In this document: positions 1-4,982 of the stretch, piece by piece
How the letters are laid out: every line of letters begins with the position of its first letter
Position numbering within the stretch: position 1 is the stretch's first letter
Sequence record: PZ049717.1
Reading direction: 5' to 3' (one strand)
Length of the DNA: 4,982 nt
From: a phage
Notes under the pieces: generated by a model
The model's input: the letters and a program-made list of their open reading frames with translations, nothing else
What the model was told of the DNA's origin: nothing
Database searches by the model: none
Position numbers and translations under genes: made by a program

Positions 1-1815
1 CAGCGCTGTGGTGAAGTGATCGGCGTGCTCAGCCTGCAGCACAGCGGCAAGCCACGGGCCTGGCATGCCGACGAAATCGCCTTCGCCGGTGAACTGGCCG
101 ATCAGTACGCGCAGGTACTGGCCAACCAGCAGCGCCTGAGTGCCACCCACATGCTCGGCCTGTTCCAGCGCGCAGTGGAGCAGAGCGCCAGCGCCTTCAT
201 CCTGGTGGACCGGGACGGTCGCGTGGAGTACGTGAACCCTGCCTTCACCGCCATCAGCCAATTCTCCGAGTCCGAAGTGCGCGGTCAGCGCCTGGCCGAT
301 CTCAAGGCTCTGGAAAACCTCGGAGAGCTGCTGTTCGACACCTCGTCGGTACTCGCCCACAGCAACAGCTGGCAGGGCGAGTTTCGCTCAAGGCGCAAGA
401 ATCTGGAGCCCTACTGGGGGCAGCTGTCGATCTCGAAGGTCTTCAACGACGACGGCATGCTCACCCACTACATCGGCATCTACGAGGACATCACCCGCAG
501 CAAGCTGGCCCATCAGCACATCGAGCGCCTGGCCTACACCGACAACCTGACCAACCTGGGCAATCGTCCTTTCTTCATCCGCAGTATCGAGGAGCGCTTC
601 GCCGCAGGCGCCGAGCCGAGGCTCTGCCTGCTGCTGGTGGACATCGACAACTTCAAGCGAATCAATGACAGCCTGGGCCACCAGACCGGCGACAAGCTGC
701 TTACCAGCCTCGCACGCCGGCTGCGCAACGGCCTCAGCCAGCAGAGCGTGCTGGCACGTTTCGCCAGCAACGAGTTCGCCCTGCTGTTCGATGACAAGGG
801 CCTGGAGGAAGGCATAAGACTGGCGGATCAGGTGCTGCGCATCCTCGACAAGCCACTGTTCGTCGACAAGCAGCTGATCAGCGTCAGCGGCTCGCTGGGA
901 CTGGCCTGCTCACCGCAACACGGGCGCGACCCGGAAACCCTGATGAAGCATGCCGGGCAGGCGCTGCACAAGGCCAAGGCGAACGGCAAGAACCAGGTGC
1001 AGATATTCACCGAAGCCCTGCATGCCGAGGCCAACTACAAGCTCTTCGTCGAGAACAATCTTCGCCGCGCGCTGCTGCAGAACGAGTTGGAGGTGTTCTA
1101 TCAGCCCAAGCTGTGCCTGCACACCGGTCGGCTGCAGGGGCTGGAGGCGCTGCTGCGCTGGAACCACCCGGAAAAAGGCATGATCCGCCCGGACCAGTTC
1201 ATCAGCGTCGCGGAAGAGACCGGGTTGATCATTCCGATCGGCAAATGGGTCGTTCGCGAAGCCTGCCGCATGGGCGTTACGCTGTCGGAACTGGGTCTGG
1301 GCAAACCCCAGATCGCCATCAACCTGTCACCCAAGCAGTTCTCCGACCCGGACCTGCTGAGCTCCATCGCGGCGATTTTGCTGGAGGAAAAGCTCCCCGC
1401 CGGGCAACTGGAACTGGAGCTGACCGAGAGCCTGCTGCTCGATGCCACCGAGGAAACCCGTCAACAGCTGATCGGCCTCAAGGCGCTGGGCCTGACCCTG
1501 GCCATGGACGATTTCGGCACCGGTTACTCCTCGCTCAGCTACCTGAAGAAATTCCCCATCGATGTGATCAAGATCGATCGCAGCTTCATCAAGGACATCC
1601 CTGACAACCAGGACGACGTGGAAATCACCTCGGCGGTGATCGCCATGGCGCGCAAGCTGCACCTCAAGGTCGTCGCCGAAGGCATCGAAACGCCGGAGCA
1701 GCTGAAGTTTCTCCGCCGACATCGTTGCGATATCGGCCAGGGCTATTTGTTCGACAAGCCGATCCCGGGCACCGGACTGACCGATGCCCTGCGCCGCTAC
1801 CCTCACTGGTGCTGA
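1..1815 (+). CDS. dipA: c-di-GMP phosphodiesterase, GAF-PAS-GGDEF(degenerate)-EAL architecture (DipA-like); 5'-partial, reading frame open from base 1
   Basis: Frame 1 is open from position 1 to TGA at 1813-1815; the GTG at 16 in the ORF track is not the real start. Translation shows the tail of a GAF domain (approx nt 1-140), a PAS-like segment (approx nt 160-510), and a GGDEF-like domain (approx nt 530-1010) whose signature is ASNEF (nt 763-777) instead of GG(D/E)EF and which ends ALHKAKANGKNQV. The EAL domain (approx nt 1050-1790) has the conserved motifs intact: EVFYQPK (EVF at nt 1090-1098), LLRWNHP, INLSP, ELELTES, DDFGTGYSSLSYL, KIDRSF, EGIETPEQ, QGYLF. High GC3 codon usage. Synteny with msrA supports the dipA (PA5017-like) name. 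Confidence 0.88.
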   Translation, partial: QRCGEVIGVLSLQHSGKPRAWHADEIAFAGELADQYAQVLANQQRLSATHMLGLFQRAVEQSASAFILVDRDGRVEYVNPAFTAISQFSESEVRGQRLADLKALENLGELLFDTSSVLAHSNSWQGEFRSRRKNLEPYWGQLSISKVFNDDGMLTHYIGIYEDITRSKLAHQHIERLAYTDNLTNLGNRPFFIRSIEERFAAGAEPRLCLLLVDIDNFKRINDSLGHQTGDKLLTSLARRLRNGLSQQSVLARFASNEFALLFDDKGLEEGIRLADQVLRILDKPLFVDKQLISVSGSLGLACSPQHGRDPETLMKHAGQALHKAKANGKNQVQIFTEALHAEANYKLFVENNLRRALLQNELEVFYQPKLCLHTGRLQGLEALLRWNHPEKGMIRPDQFISVAEETGLIIPIGKWVVREACRMGVTLSELGLGKPQIAINLSPKQFSDPDLLSSIAAILLEEKLPAGQLELELTESLLLDATEETRQQLIGLKALGLTLAMDDFGTGYSSLSYLKKFPIDVIKIDRSFIKDIPDNQDDVEITSAVIAMARKLHLKVVAEGIETPEQLKFLRRHRCDIGQGYLFDKPIPGTGLTDALRRYPHWC

Positions 1816-2971: not shown

Positions 2972-4750
2972 TCAAAACTGTGCGGCATCCAGCAGGTAGA
3001 GCGACTCGCTGCCGGCCTTGACTGACGCCGTAAGCGAGTGGATGCGCGGCAACATCCGGGCAAAGTAGAAACGCGCCGTGCCCAGTTTGCTCTGATAGAA
3101 ATCGCCCTCGCCCTGCTTCGCCAATGCCACCGCTGCCATGCGCGCCCACATGTAGGCGTACGCGGTGTAGCCGAACACGTGCAGGTACTCGACCGAAGCG
3201 GCGCCGATCTCGTTCGGATTGGCCTTGGCCTGATCGATCACCCAGGCGGTCAGCTCGTCCAGATTGTCCAGCGCAGCCTTGAGGGGCTCGGTGAACTCGC
3301 GCAGATCCGCACCGGCACTGGCGATGAATGCGCGGATCTCATCGACGAACGCCTGATACATGGTGCCGCCGCTGCCGACAATCTTGCGTCCGACCAGATC
3401 CAGCGCCTGGATGCCGTTGGTGCCTTCGTAGATCTGGGTAATACGGCAATCGCGCACCAGTTGCTCCTGGCCCCATTCGCGAATGAAGCCGTGGCCGCCG
3501 AACACCTGCTGACCGTGCACAGTGGTTTCCAATCCCATGTCGGTGAGGAAGGCCTTGGCCACCGGCGTCAGCAGCGCAACTTGCGCCTCGGCCCGCTGCC
3601 GTGCCGCTTCGTCATCGCTGAACTTGGCGATATCGAGCTGCAGCGCGACGTAGCTGGAAAACGCACGCCCACCTTCGTTCAAGGCCTTCATGGTCAGCAG
3701 CATGCGCCGTACATCGGGATGCACGATGATGGGATCGGCGGCCTTGTCCTGCGCCACCGGGCCAGTCGGGGCACGGCTCTGGATGCGCTCGCGAGCGTAC
3801 TCGATGGCGCTCTGGTAGGAACGCTCGCCAGTGGCCAAGCCCTGGATACCGACGCCCAGACGCTCGTAGTTCATCATGGTGAACATCGCCGCCAGACCCT
3901 TGTTGGGTTCGCCGACCATCCAGCCGGTAGCGCCATCGAAGTTCATCACGCAGGTGGCGGAGGCCTGGATACCCATCTTGTGTTCGATCGATCCGCAGGA
4001 CAGCGAGTTGCGCTCGCCCAGCGAGCCGTCGTCGTTGACCAGAACCTTGGGCACCAGGAACAGGGAGATGCCGTGCGAACCGGCCGGCGCATCCGGCAGC
4101 TTGGCCAGTACCAGATGGATGATGTTGTCGGTCAGGTCGTGCTCGCCACCCGTGATGAAGATCTTGGTGCCACTGACCTTGTAGGAGCCATCGGCCTGCG
4201 GCTCGGCCTTGGTGCGGATGATGCCCAGATCGGTACCGGCATGCGGCTCGGTCAGGCACATGGAACCGGACCAGACGCCGGCGTACATGTTCGGCAGGTA
4301 CTTCTGCTTAAGCTCTTCGCTGGCATGGGCGTAGATCGACAAGCAGGCGCCGGACGTCAGCATCGGATACAGACCGAACGCCAGGCTGGCGGAGTTCATC
4401 ATTTCCTCCACCTGCGCCGAGATGACCTTGGGCATGCCCATGCCACCGAATGCCGGGTCACCACCGACACCCACCCAGCCACCTTCAGCGTACAGCTGAT
4501 AGGCCTCGCGATAGCCGGCCGGTGTCGACACCGCACCGTCGTCCCAGCGGCAACCCTCTTCGTCACCACTGCGATTGAGCGGGGCGATGCTGTTGGCGGT
4601 GATCTTGCCGGCCTCTTCGAGGATCGCGTCGGCGGTTTCCGCGTCGACCACCTCGGCCAGGGCTGGCAGCGCCTGCCAGAGCTTCGGCGCATCGAAGACT
4701 TCATTCAGGACAAAACGCATGTCGCGCAGCGGCGCTTGGTAGTCAGCCAT
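2972..4750 (-). CDS. large acyl-CoA dehydrogenase (~592 aa; long-type ACAD with C-terminal extension, FadE/DmdC-like family)
   Basis: Long - strand ORF with high GC3 bias. Preferred start is the ATG at 4750-4748, giving MADYQAPLRDMRFVLNEVFD..., preceded by GAGGAA (4758-4763) 7 nt upstream; the ORF-track start at 4786 adds 12 residues with no RBS. Contains the ACAD catalytic-base region ITQIYEGTNGIQ (YEGT motif), FAD/substrate-fold blocks (CLTEPHAGTDLG, GTKIFITGGEHD, FGGHGF) and a ~130-aa C-terminal extension typical of the ~600-aa ACAD subfamily. Stop TGA at 2974-2972. Confidence 0.92.
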   Translation of the reverse strand: MADYQAPLRDMRFVLNEVFDAPKLWQALPALAEVVDAETADAILEEAGKITANSIAPLNRSGDEEGCRWDDGAVSTPAGYREAYQLYAEGGWVGVGGDPAFGGMGMPKVISAQVEEMMNSASLAFGLYPMLTSGACLSIYAHASEELKQKYLPNMYAGVWSGSMCLTEPHAGTDLGIIRTKAEPQADGSYKVSGTKIFITGGEHDLTDNIIHLVLAKLPDAPAGSHGISLFLVPKVLVNDDGSLGERNSLSCGSIEHKMGIQASATCVMNFDGATGWMVGEPNKGLAAMFTMMNYERLGVGIQGLATGERSYQSAIEYARERIQSRAPTGPVAQDKAADPIIVHPDVRRMLLTMKALNEGGRAFSSYVALQLDIAKFSDDEAARQRAEAQVALLTPVAKAFLTDMGLETTVHGQQVFGGHGFIREWGQEQLVRDCRITQIYEGTNGIQALDLVGRKIVGSGGTMYQAFVDEIRAFIASAGADLREFTEPLKAALDNLDELTAWVIDQAKANPNEIGAASVEYLHVFGYTAYAYMWARMAAVALAKQGEGDFYQSKLGTARFYFARMLPRIHSLTASVKAGSESLYLLDAAQF

Positions 4751-4888: not shown

Positions 4889-4982
4889 CTAACGCGAATG
4901 GCCTGCCATACGCACTGCGCCGCGCCCGCTGCCATGCACCCGAACGCAATTGCGTCCGGCCTTCTTGGCGCCATACAGCGCC
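4889..4982 (-). CDS. 3' end of a gene for a probable GGDEF-domain (diguanylate cyclase-like) protein; only the last ~30 codons are in the window
   Basis: Reverse-strand translation entering from the window edge gives ALYGAKKAGRNCVRVHGSGRGAVRMAGHSR then TAG (4891-4889). ALY.AK..GRN.V is the characteristic C-terminal motif of GGDEF domains; compare ALHKAKANGKNQV at the end of the GGDEF-like domain in the dipA product here. The fragment is short and GC3 is only moderate, hence modest confidence. Confidence 0.4.
   Translation of the reverse strand, partial: ALYGAKKAGRNCVRVHGSGRGAVRMAGHSR

Follow-up and report, generated by a model that had tools for sequence, protein, structure and literature searches.

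The 3′ part of a dipA ortholog from Stutzerimonas stutzeri, predicted to encode a c-di-GMP phosphodiesterase with an inactive cyclase domain

Nucleotides 1-1815 (plus strand) of the 4,982-nt stretch of DNA analyzed here (hereafter the window; PZ049717.1) very probably encode the Stutzerimonas stutzeri ortholog of DipA (PA5017, alias Pch), a c-di-GMP phosphodiesterase with a dead cyclase; we put the probability of this reading at about 0.93. DipA has already been well studied in Pseudomonas, so that finding its S. stutzeri copy is correct but ordinary. For S. stutzeri, the name dipA can replace the label "putative bifunctional diguanylate cyclase/phosphodiesterase", and the gene product can be counted as a c-di-GMP degrader in models of biofilm formation and motility of this nitrogen-fixing, denitrifying species. 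Beyond correct annotation, the result has little significance.

Frame +1 is open across nt 1-1815 and ends with TGA followed by TAG. These 604 codons and the stop codon are the 3′ two-thirds of the gene, the 5′ 286 codons of which lie outside the window, and the encoded fragment comprises the C-terminal 604 of the 890 residues of the protein. It is 100% identical to annotated 890-aa S. stutzeri proteins, and one of these (P0001) has been used as the full-length reference; the N-terminal 286 residues are known only through this identical database protein. P0001 aligns end-to-end with P0127, "phosphodiesterase DipA [Pseudomonas aeruginosa]" (a name taken from NCBI and UniRef), with 626 identities over 894 aligned residues (70%), 7 gaps and E=0. 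The best 120 protein matches and 80 loci of the first searches did not include P. aeruginosa, and its DipA was recovered by a second protein search with a P. tohonis homolog (P0066) as the query.

The first-pass annotation had called the protein DipA-like and proposed an alignment to PA5017. The alignment bears out this assignment more strongly than was claimed, because the 70% identity is accompanied by an identical ASNEF motif and the same downstream gene, msrA. The P. aeruginosa protein also shares the PAS-GAF-PAS-GGDEF*-EAL order (the asterisk denoting the degenerate domain), the lack of an RxxD motif and the EAL signatures. By tblastn, single colinear full-length matches of 63-87% identity, representing the complete gene, were found in 77 of 80 Pseudomonas and Stutzerimonas loci, and the gene is cut by a contig end in the remaining three. 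DipA of P. fluorescens SBW25 (PFLU0458) is grouped with PA5017 as the closest known system, and dipA has been described as encoding a "GAF-PAS-ASNEF-EAL protein" (PMC7314104). The host differs from that of PA5017, S. stutzeri being an environmental denitrifier and nitrogen fixer, and no functional link between this species and DipA was found in the literature searched.

No DipA-specific model was found in NCBIfam, where the best match was the DibA family (NF045675; E 1.2e-148). Since the scores of the S. stutzeri protein (496 bits for the fragment and 495 bits for the full length) and of P. aeruginosa DipA itself (521 bits) are far under the cut-off of 980, membership in DibA was rejected. Scans for repeats, promoters and terminators inside dipA gave nothing notable.

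Pfam places GAF, PAS, GGDEF-like and EAL domains within the window, and matches them in P0001 at residues 188-326, 340-453, 464-618 and 638-873, respectively; the coordinates given below for dipA are all on the plus strand. The segment at nt 1-120 (aa 4-40) matches only the final 35 positions (99-133 of 133) of the GAF profile, so the domain is indeed cut by the window edge as first read, and it is complete in P0001. The PAS sensor domain at nt 160-501 (aa 54-167; Pfam PAS_9/PAS_4/PAS, E 6e-15 to 4e-10) corresponds to the second of the two PAS domains of PA5017, which are located at residues 9-130 and 344-460 (PMC8694187). Both sensors that had been placed before the GGDEF-EAL tandem are thus matched by Pfam. 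They are followed by the degenerate GGDEF, or pseudo-cyclase, domain at nt 532-996 (aa 178-332, E 1.7e-37) and the EAL phosphodiesterase domain at nt 1054-1761 (aa 352-587, E 1.1e-75). The N-terminal PAS domain, which lies outside the window, has no Pfam match in P0001, yet it aligns to residues 1-130 of PA5017.

The N-terminus and the GAF domain are the least conserved parts among 79 orthologs (mean pairwise identity 0.65-0.69), and the N-terminal PAS and GAF domains are also the regions most diverged from PA5017. Since the sensor regions are the least conserved, they may respond to inputs other than those sensed by the P. aeruginosa protein. The primary DipA paper, that of Roy et al. in 2012, is said to have reported modulation by the GAF domain and "two EAL motifs". 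The PAS-GGDEF-EAL core is shared with DibA, RbdA (PA0861), DosP and PdeR/Gmr, but these do not have the N-terminal PAS-GAF region. The best match among solved structures is the GGDEF-EAL module of MorA (PA4601; 4RNH/4RNF/4RNI), to which the GGDEF-EAL region aligns over its full length (window aa 176-590) with E 1.9e-108. MorA is a paralog-level relative rather than an ortholog, and differs from S. stutzeri DipA in its canonical GGDEF motif, membrane location and sensor region. The positions of the motifs are fixed by structure-based references, solved GGDEF-EAL proteins matched with E values of about 1e-108; the structures used are MorA and 5M3C, and the residue numbers of PleD and RocR are from established knowledge.

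The first-pass annotation had listed a full EAL catalytic set beginning with EVF. Every signature residue is present; however, the EVF at nt 1090-1098 (aa 364-366) is not a signature, being part of the strand ELEVFYQPK at the start of the domain. This position is variable in the orthologs (E/D/A/Q), with EVF in 37, DVF in 34 and other triplets elsewhere, and is AVH in P. aeruginosa DipA. The true EAL signature is E382-A-L-L-R386 at nt 1144-1158, which aligns to "aeallrw" of MorA and is found as EALLRW in 78 of the 79 orthologs and as EALVRW in the other one. Because this true motif is intact, the conclusion of an active EAL domain stands despite the misreading of EVF.

The definitions of the EAL motifs come partly from established knowledge of RocR and TBD1265. 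Downstream of EALLR, the metal-binding Asn441 (nt 1321-1323) lies in INLS, which is IN[LV]S in 79/79 orthologs and "vNLS" in MorA. The ExxE motif E473-L-T-E476 (nt 1417-1428), providing a metal-binding Glu and the Glu that stabilizes loop 6, is identical in MorA, and E[LVI]ELTE is found in all 79 orthologs. The metal-binding Asp pair and loop 6 are given by DDFGTGYSS (nt 1507-1533), which is present in 79/79 orthologs and identical in MorA; the 4RNF mutant carries NN at the Asp pair equivalent to D503/D504, and the role of the motif has been described (PMC13492106). The KIDRSF segment (nt 1570-1587) with the catalytic Lys524 is likewise identical in MorA and found in every ortholog. The EGxE motif E560-G-I-E563 (nt 1678-1689), the glutamate of which is the catalytic base (PMC12900916), is AEG[IV]ET in 79/79 orthologs, and EGIE here versus EGVE in MorA is a conservative difference. 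The substrate-binding Gln580 is located in QGYLF (nt 1738-1752), which is identical in MorA and found in 78/79 orthologs. All the elements of a class I EAL domain, namely EALxR, N, ExxE, DDFG(T/A)GYSS, KxD, EGxE and QG, are present in the S. stutzeri protein.

The linker between the GGDEF and EAL domains contains another EAL triplet, in FTEAL (nt 1012-1020), which was examined as a candidate for a catalytic second "EAL". It is also found in P. aeruginosa, but the linker triplet is EAL in about 54 of the 79 orthologs and EVL, ETL, DVL or EEL elsewhere. Since it varies among orthologs, we have not treated it as catalytic.

The intact EAL domain bears on whether the protein might be a receptor that binds c-di-GMP by its EAL domain without hydrolysis and signals by conformational change. 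FimX and LapD, both of which appear among the weaker PDB matches, work as receptors and share with S. stutzeri DipA the tandem with a degenerate GGDEF domain, and DipA and FimX have been grouped as "pseudo-enzymes" (PMC7148300). However, the EAL domains of FimX and LapD are also degenerate, including the EAL and DDFGTG motifs of FimX (PMC7148300), whereas all metal-binding and catalytic signatures are intact here and in 78-79 of the 79 orthologs, and phosphodiesterase activity has been shown for the P. aeruginosa ortholog (PMC7148300). We regard a receptor without hydrolysis as very improbable.

The GGDEF-like domain has ASNEF (nt 763-777, aa 255-259) in place of GG(D/E)EF. As first read, this segment is exactly at the A-site, since the alignments match it to the GGDEF motifs of MorA (4RNH) and 5M3C. 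The GG(D/E)EF of an active cyclase is changed at three positions, G to A, G to S, and D/E to N at the metal-ligand position; because both hairpin glycines are replaced and the metal-binding acidic residue is Asn, the domain cannot be a normal cyclase. The product-inhibition motif is also missing: at the RxxD I-site position there is SQQS (nt 736-747, aa 246-249), which VLARF separates from ASNEF, this five-residue spacer being the I-site register, and SQQS aligns under RDVD of 5M3C. The lack of an RxxD I-site noticed earlier is thereby confirmed, and RxxD is found at this position in 0/79 orthologs. The position is highly variable, and differs from PA5017, which has GDGA.

Cyclase activity has been reported to persist with some non-canonical motifs (GNDEF and GGDQF; PMC12900916), so that sequence alone is not a strict exclusion of residual activity. 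A protein that both makes and degrades c-di-GMP through a weak cyclase would fit these reports, the retained GTP-contact residues, and the label "putative bifunctional diguanylate cyclase/phosphodiesterase" attached to many orthologs in databases. Against this, ASNEF keeps only two of the five residues of the motif, both glycines and the metal ligand having been lost, the cyclase domain of the P. aeruginosa ortholog is experimentally inactive (PMC7148300), and the database label is generic and domain-based. A bifunctional enzyme has very little chance of being the correct reading.

Loss of the cyclase with an active phosphodiesterase, as predicted in the first-pass annotation, fits the residues described above, and the same has been found experimentally for PA5017: its cyclase domain is inactive, its phosphodiesterase domain is active, and deletion of the gene raises c-di-GMP (PMC7148300). 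By analogy with characterized orthologs, S. stutzeri DipA would be a cytoplasmic multidomain phosphodiesterase that converts c-di-GMP to pGpG by two-metal catalysis and makes no c-di-GMP. Lowering of c-di-GMP in this way would favor flagellar motility and biofilm dispersal. The activity may be modulated by the N-terminal PAS/GAF sensors and by partners. In P. aeruginosa, these partners are BdlA, whose relocation switches on the phosphodiesterase activity of DipA (PMC13584717), and a CheA-dependent complex at the pole; Pch (PA5017), with its degenerate GGDEF domain, is polar and CheA-dependent (PMC3861689).

The GGDEF-like domain has a mean pairwise identity of 0.82 among the 79 orthologs. ASNEF is invariant in 79/79 orthologs, whose overall identity is only about 65-87%, and the motif is identical in P. 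aeruginosa DipA. The dN/dS values are 0.07-0.25 for this domain versus 0.05-0.16 for the EAL domain, indicating purifying selection. The segment DIDNFKRINDSLGHQTGD (nt 640-693) of the GGDEF fold is identical in 73/79 orthologs and aligns to "DlDrFKpiNDslGHaaGD" of MorA; it retains a metal-binding Asp, a Lys, and a guanine-binding Asn and Asp, roles which we take to correspond to D327, K332, N335 and D344 of PleD. AKANGK, with the two Lys of the GTP pocket, is also retained. Both segments match their counterparts in MorA, whose GGDEF domain is active, and the GTP-contact residues align identically between the two proteins. Among the best 150 of 1.84 billion cluster representatives, ASNEF is confined to DipA clusters; the bit score falls from 1302 to 572 between DipA clusters and the next relatives, which carry GGDEF, and GGDEF is kept in 132 of 161 domains of the non-DipA relatives recovered. 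The invariant ASNEF, the retained GTP contacts and a dN/dS of about 0.1 indicate that the pseudo-cyclase domain has a selected, non-catalytic job and is not a relic, and its being strictly invariant and family-specific under purifying selection argues for a selected function. The two candidates for this role would be GTP sensing and a docking function, in which the domain binds adaptor proteins or other GGDEF domains.

PdeA (CC3396) of Caulobacter crescentus is an EAL phosphodiesterase activated by GTP, with a degenerate GGDEF domain (GEDEF). If the ASNEF domain likewise bound GTP at the old substrate site and allosterically activated the EAL domain, the phosphodiesterase activity would track the cellular GTP pool. 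By description, the two proteins are alike in having a degenerate GGDEF domain before an active EAL and in retaining the GTP-contact residues, which in DipA orthologs are nearly invariant and match those of active MorA in a domain under purifying selection. However, CC3396 differs in keeping the acidic residues of the motif, and the replacement of both Gly and of the metal ligand (by Asn) in ASNEF should weaken the binding of Mg-GTP. In addition, a pocket that was simply retained would not require every one of the five ASNEF residues to be invariant, and no report of GTP regulation of DipA was found in the literature searched. We consider GTP sensing possible but rather doubtful. The first-pass annotation had noted that dead GGDEF domains in such tandem proteins are often used for GTP binding or allosteric control; for DipA this would be a general precedent only, and published data favor a role in protein interaction at least as much as GTP regulation.

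In P. fluorescens SBW25, 16 of 18 DipA partners in a genome-wide yeast two-hybrid screen were c-di-GMP proteins, all interacting via their GGDEF domains (bioRxiv 10.64898/2026.05.12.724550). In P. aeruginosa, an adaptor binding the GGDEF domain of Pch was proposed by Kulasekara et al. (PMC3861689). The pseudo-GGDEF domain may accordingly heterodimerize with its counterparts in active cyclases, or be linked to the CheA complex by a receiver-type adaptor that it binds, and such docking would place the phosphodiesterase beside local sources of c-di-GMP at the cell pole. The strong constraint on the invariant ASNEF is consistent with this. On the other hand, yeast two-hybrid data are indirect and from P. 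fluorescens, and DipA of Pf0-1 was without such interactions in another study (noted in bioRxiv 10.64898/2026.05.12.724550). We give docking a chance somewhat short of even; it is compatible with GTP sensing, and the two are not exclusive.

It may be, and we suggest this tentatively on the pattern of conservation, that ASNEF is not a "broken GGDEF" but a functional site that was gained and now defines the family, the old active-site hairpin having taken on a new use. The hairpin could be a metal-independent nucleotide sensor, or a surface by which DipA contacts the half-active-sites of genuine cyclases, where it would either cap them or pass what they make directly to its own EAL site. In P. 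aeruginosa and P. fluorescens, for which well-developed systems exist, mutagenesis could be aimed at exactly the five residues of ASNEF.

The gene msrA, for peptide methionine sulfoxide reductase A, is located at nt 1918-2565 on the plus strand (Pfam PMSR, E 7e-63; TIGR00401, 219 bits against a cut-off of 108). It follows dipA on the same strand after a gap of 102 nt, in which no terminator-like site was found by scanning, and is directly downstream in 77 of 80 related loci. A dipA-msrA operon has been described in P. aeruginosa (PMC7314104). Unlike in P. aeruginosa, msrA is followed by rsmY and an acyl-CoA dehydrogenase gene, an arrangement found only in Stutzerimonas loci. The RsmY sRNA gene lies at nt 2643-2762 on the minus strand (Rfam RF00195, 102 bits against a gathering threshold of 57 bits, E 1.7e-24, model positions 1-121 of 121), with seven GGA motifs and a terminator. 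The fold of this region is no more stable than those of shuffled sequences (z -0.62), which is uninformative beside the covariance-model match. A GacA-box match with one mismatch was also found; matches of equal quality occur by chance in about half of the shuffles, and its position upstream of rsmY alone makes the match suggestive.

From nt 1 on, no stop codon interrupts reading frame +1 of the window until the TGA at 1813-1815, and a TAG comes immediately after it; the G+C content is 62-63% over this dipA part and 56-67% over the whole window. The 604 residues encoded here on the plus strand agree at every position (100% identity) with the C-terminal part of two 890-aa proteins from Stutzerimonas (Pseudomonas) stutzeri genomes, P0001 and P0002. 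The following Pfam domains were found in the window protein: the end of a GAF domain (aa 4-40, the last 35 positions of the profile), a PAS domain (aa 54-167, E about 1e-15 to 1e-10), a GGDEF-like domain (aa 178-332, E 1.7e-37), and an EAL domain (aa 352-587, E 1.1e-75). Since the full-length P0001 has a complete GAF domain at aa 188-326, it is the window edge that cuts this domain, as the first-pass annotation had supposed.

For a survey of orthologs, one genome per species was scanned, which yielded 80 loci. With the full-length protein as query, tblastn gave a single match, colinear and spanning residues 1 to about 887 at 63-87% identity, in 77 of the loci; the other three lack a complete gene because a contig end cuts them. 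P. aeruginosa is not among these 80 loci, and its protein P0127 (899 aa, 1813 member sequences), named "phosphodiesterase DipA [Pseudomonas aeruginosa]" in NCBI and UniRef, was found by a second search using a P. tohonis homolog as the query. In an alignment with 7 gaps that starts at the first residue and reaches the C-terminus, P0001 and P0127 are identical at 626 of 894 positions (70%); ASNEF is opposite ASNEF and all EAL signatures are identical. Downstream of dipA on the same strand lies msrA (1918-2565; Pfam PMSR, E 7e-63; TIGR00401 above cut-off), as it does in 77 of the 80 loci, and no terminator-like site was found between the two genes. The mechanical msrA ORF starts at GTG 1828 (245 aa), but the real start is most likely ATG 1918, leaving a spacer of 102 nt, because homologs in the 77 loci align from there (214-216 aa) and the PMSR domain begins at residue 51 of this shorter form. 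The P. aeruginosa gene has been described as encoding a "GAF-PAS-ASNEF-EAL protein" in an operon "dipA-msrA" (PMC7314104), and "a degenerated ASNEF motif" has been reported for P. fluorescens DipA (PFLU0458; 2026 preprint, bioRxiv 10.64898/2026.05.12.724550). All defining features of the DipA group that could be tested are present in the window protein. Because sequence, architecture, motif, and synteny all concur, we identify the gene as the S. stutzeri ortholog of dipA/pch; the likeness to DipA first proposed by eye is thus confirmed by alignment and by msrA synteny. Membership of the DibA family was rejected because the score, 496 bits, is below the cut-off of 980; P. aeruginosa DipA itself scores 521 bits with the DibA model.

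Two DipA loci carry non-Pseudomonas labels, namely "Enterobacterales bacterium" (L078, JBKYMN010000005.1) and a "Rhodoferax sp." MAG (L022, JAQSDS010000381.1). L078 equals the P. nitroreducens locus L076 in tblastn coordinates, identity, and msrA position, and the labels of L078 and L022 probably stem from mislabelling or contamination of the assemblies, not from horizontal transfer.

In the GGDEF-like domain, a script located ASNEF at aa 255-259 (nt 763-777) and SQQS at aa 246-249 (nt 736-747), both on the plus strand, and the five residues VLARF between them put SQQS in register with an RxxD inhibitory site. In HMMER alignments to solved structures, "arfASNEFallf" is opposite "armGGDEFtlll" of the MorA GGDEF-EAL module (4RNH, E 1.9e-108), and "lSQQSvlarfASNEF" is opposite "lRDVDtvarlGGDEF" of 5M3C. 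Because of these pairings, ASNEF is placed at the active site (A-site) and SQQS at the product-inhibition site (I-site), in agreement with what had been read from the sequence alone. The domain lacks both motif glycines and the metal-binding acidic residue, and no RxxD is present in it; the window protein has neither the defining motif of active cyclases nor that of I-site-regulated GGDEF domains.

ELTES, DDFGTGY(SS), KIDRSF, EGIET, and QGYLF are all found in the window protein, and in the HMMER alignment they are identical to those of the MorA EAL domain, except for EGIE versus EGVE. In the 4RNF crystal variant, DD of DDFG is changed to Asn-Asn, identifying these two residues as inactivating mutation sites. 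The first-pass annotation had also counted EVF (aa 364-366, nt 1090-1098, plus strand) in the catalytic set. This was ruled out as the EAL signature: EVF lies within ...NELEVFYQPK... in the first strand of the domain, and its position is variable among 79 orthologs (EVF in 37, DVF in 34, also AVH, QVF, and others), AVH being found in P. aeruginosa DipA. The real EAL signature, E382-A-L-L-R386 (nt 1144-1158, plus strand), is found within ...GLEALLRWNHP..., which aligns to "gaEALLRWqhp" of MorA, and EALLRW is present in 78 of the 79 orthologs. Because this motif is canonical, the conclusion of an intact catalytic set stands. By sequence, the metal-binding, substrate-binding, and catalytic residues are complete, and the protein shows all testable hallmarks of class I EAL phosphodiesterases; it differs in this from FimX and LapD, in which the EAL domain is degenerate (PMC7148300).

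A second "EAL" tripeptide (FTEALHAE; nt 1012-1020, plus strand, aa 338-340) was observed in the segment that links the GGDEF-like domain to the EAL domain, and also in P. aeruginosa DipA as FTEALTAE. Roy et al. in 2012 reportedly described "two EAL motifs" in DipA. Since the linker tripeptide is EAL in about 54 of the 79 orthologs and EVL, ETL, DVL, or EEL in the others, it is not strictly conserved.

Mean pairwise identity among the 79 orthologs is 0.82 for the GGDEF-like domain, 0.87 for EAL, 0.84 for PAS, 0.65 for GAF, and 0.69 for the N-terminal region, and dN/dS (Nei-Gojobori, Stutzerimonas pairs) is 0.07-0.25, 0.05-0.16, and 0.07-0.26 for the GGDEF-like, EAL, and PAS domains, respectively. 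ASNEF is found in all 79, and the I-site position is nearly random, with RxxD in none. DIDNFKRINDSLGHQTGD is identical in 73 of the 79 and AKANGK is kept, both aligning to the corresponding MorA residues. In active cyclases, the equivalent of DIDNFKRINDSLGHQTGD provides the Asp that binds metal, a Lys, and the Asn and Asp that bind guanine (in PleD, D327, K332, N335, and D344). When 1.84 billion cluster representatives were scanned exhaustively with HMMER and the best 150 proteins examined, a single full-length cluster of DipA (67% identity, 1302 bits) and fragments led the hits, and scores then dropped sharply to 572 bits, with identity of 45% or less. Among these 150 proteins, ASNEF is confined to the DipA clusters, 132 of 161 matched GGDEF domains read GGDEF, and RxxD is mostly present in the domains inspected. 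From the invariance in orthologs and this restriction, ASNEF is judged to be a fixed character specific to the DipA family.

Conservation, low dN/dS, the fixed, family-specific ASNEF, and retained DIDNFKRINDSLGHQTGD and AKANGK indicate that the dead cyclase domain is not a relic and support a selected non-catalytic role, for which there are two candidates that are not mutually exclusive. The domain may sense GTP, as the first-pass annotation suggested, in the manner of CC3396; the GTP pocket is retained, but the metal ligand of the motif is lost, and our literature search found no paper reporting GTP regulation of DipA. It may also be a docking surface, which is supported by yeast two-hybrid results from SBW25 showing a hub of GGDEF-domain partners (bioRxiv 10.64898/2026.05.12.724550) and by the adaptor hypothesis for CheA coupling (PMC3861689).

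In work on the ortholog, the cyclase domain of DipA was experimentally inactive and its phosphodiesterase domain active, and dipA deletion raised c-di-GMP and lowered swimming (PMC7148300; PMC9355167). The placement of this DipA at the flagellated pole depends on CheA, and the protein makes daughter cells asymmetric in c-di-GMP (PMC3861689), and dispersion cues cause BdlA relocation, leading to DipA activation (PMC13584717). Given the intact EAL domain, the degenerate GGDEF motif, and this ortholog literature, S. stutzeri DipA would hydrolyze c-di-GMP to pGpG without synthesizing c-di-GMP and would favor the motile state, its activity being governed by the PAS and GAF domains and partner proteins. 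Our literature search found no paper on DipA enzymology or phenotypes in S. stutzeri. The window protein is already in public databases, and its family, ASNEF motif, activity, and operon partner have all been published; only the quantified invariance and family-specificity of ASNEF are modestly new, and they sharpen the existing question of the role of the pseudo-cyclase domain.

Between msrA and an acyl-CoA dehydrogenase gene, a complete gene for RsmY, an sRNA of the Gac/Rsm pathway, was found on the minus strand (2643-2762; Rfam RF00195, E 1.7e-24, 102 bits where the gathering threshold is 57), with seven GGA motifs and an intrinsic terminator hairpin (2666-2643). About 100 nt upstream, the GacA-box-like palindrome TGTAAGCCTGGACTTATA (2879-2862, minus strand) has one mismatch to the consensus, a match not significant alone. 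Because RsmY adjoins dipA-msrA only in the S. stutzeri-type loci L002-L004 and is absent there in nine other scanned Pseudomonas/Stutzerimonas loci, this proximity probably reflects the lineage and not a functional link.

The acyl-CoA dehydrogenase gene (2972-4750, minus strand) has Acyl-CoA_dh_N/M/1 and Acyl-CoA_dh_C domains, and no NCBIfam equivalog was at or above cut-off; one copy is present in the window versus two tandem paralogs in L002. The mechanical ORF starts at GTG 4786, and ATG 4750 is pointed to as the true start because the L002 ortholog begins MADYKAPL. At 4889-4982 on the minus strand, the 3' end of a second GGDEF-domain gene (30 codons, 4892-4981, ending in ALYGAKKAGRNCVRVHGSGRGAVRMAGHSR* with the stop) runs off the right edge. 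This end matches the C-terminus of a 300-aa S. stutzeri 28a22 membrane protein (L002, 12870-13772) at 74% identity; that protein has an intact GGEEF motif, and a gene for a likely active cyclase thus lies about 3 kb from dipA.
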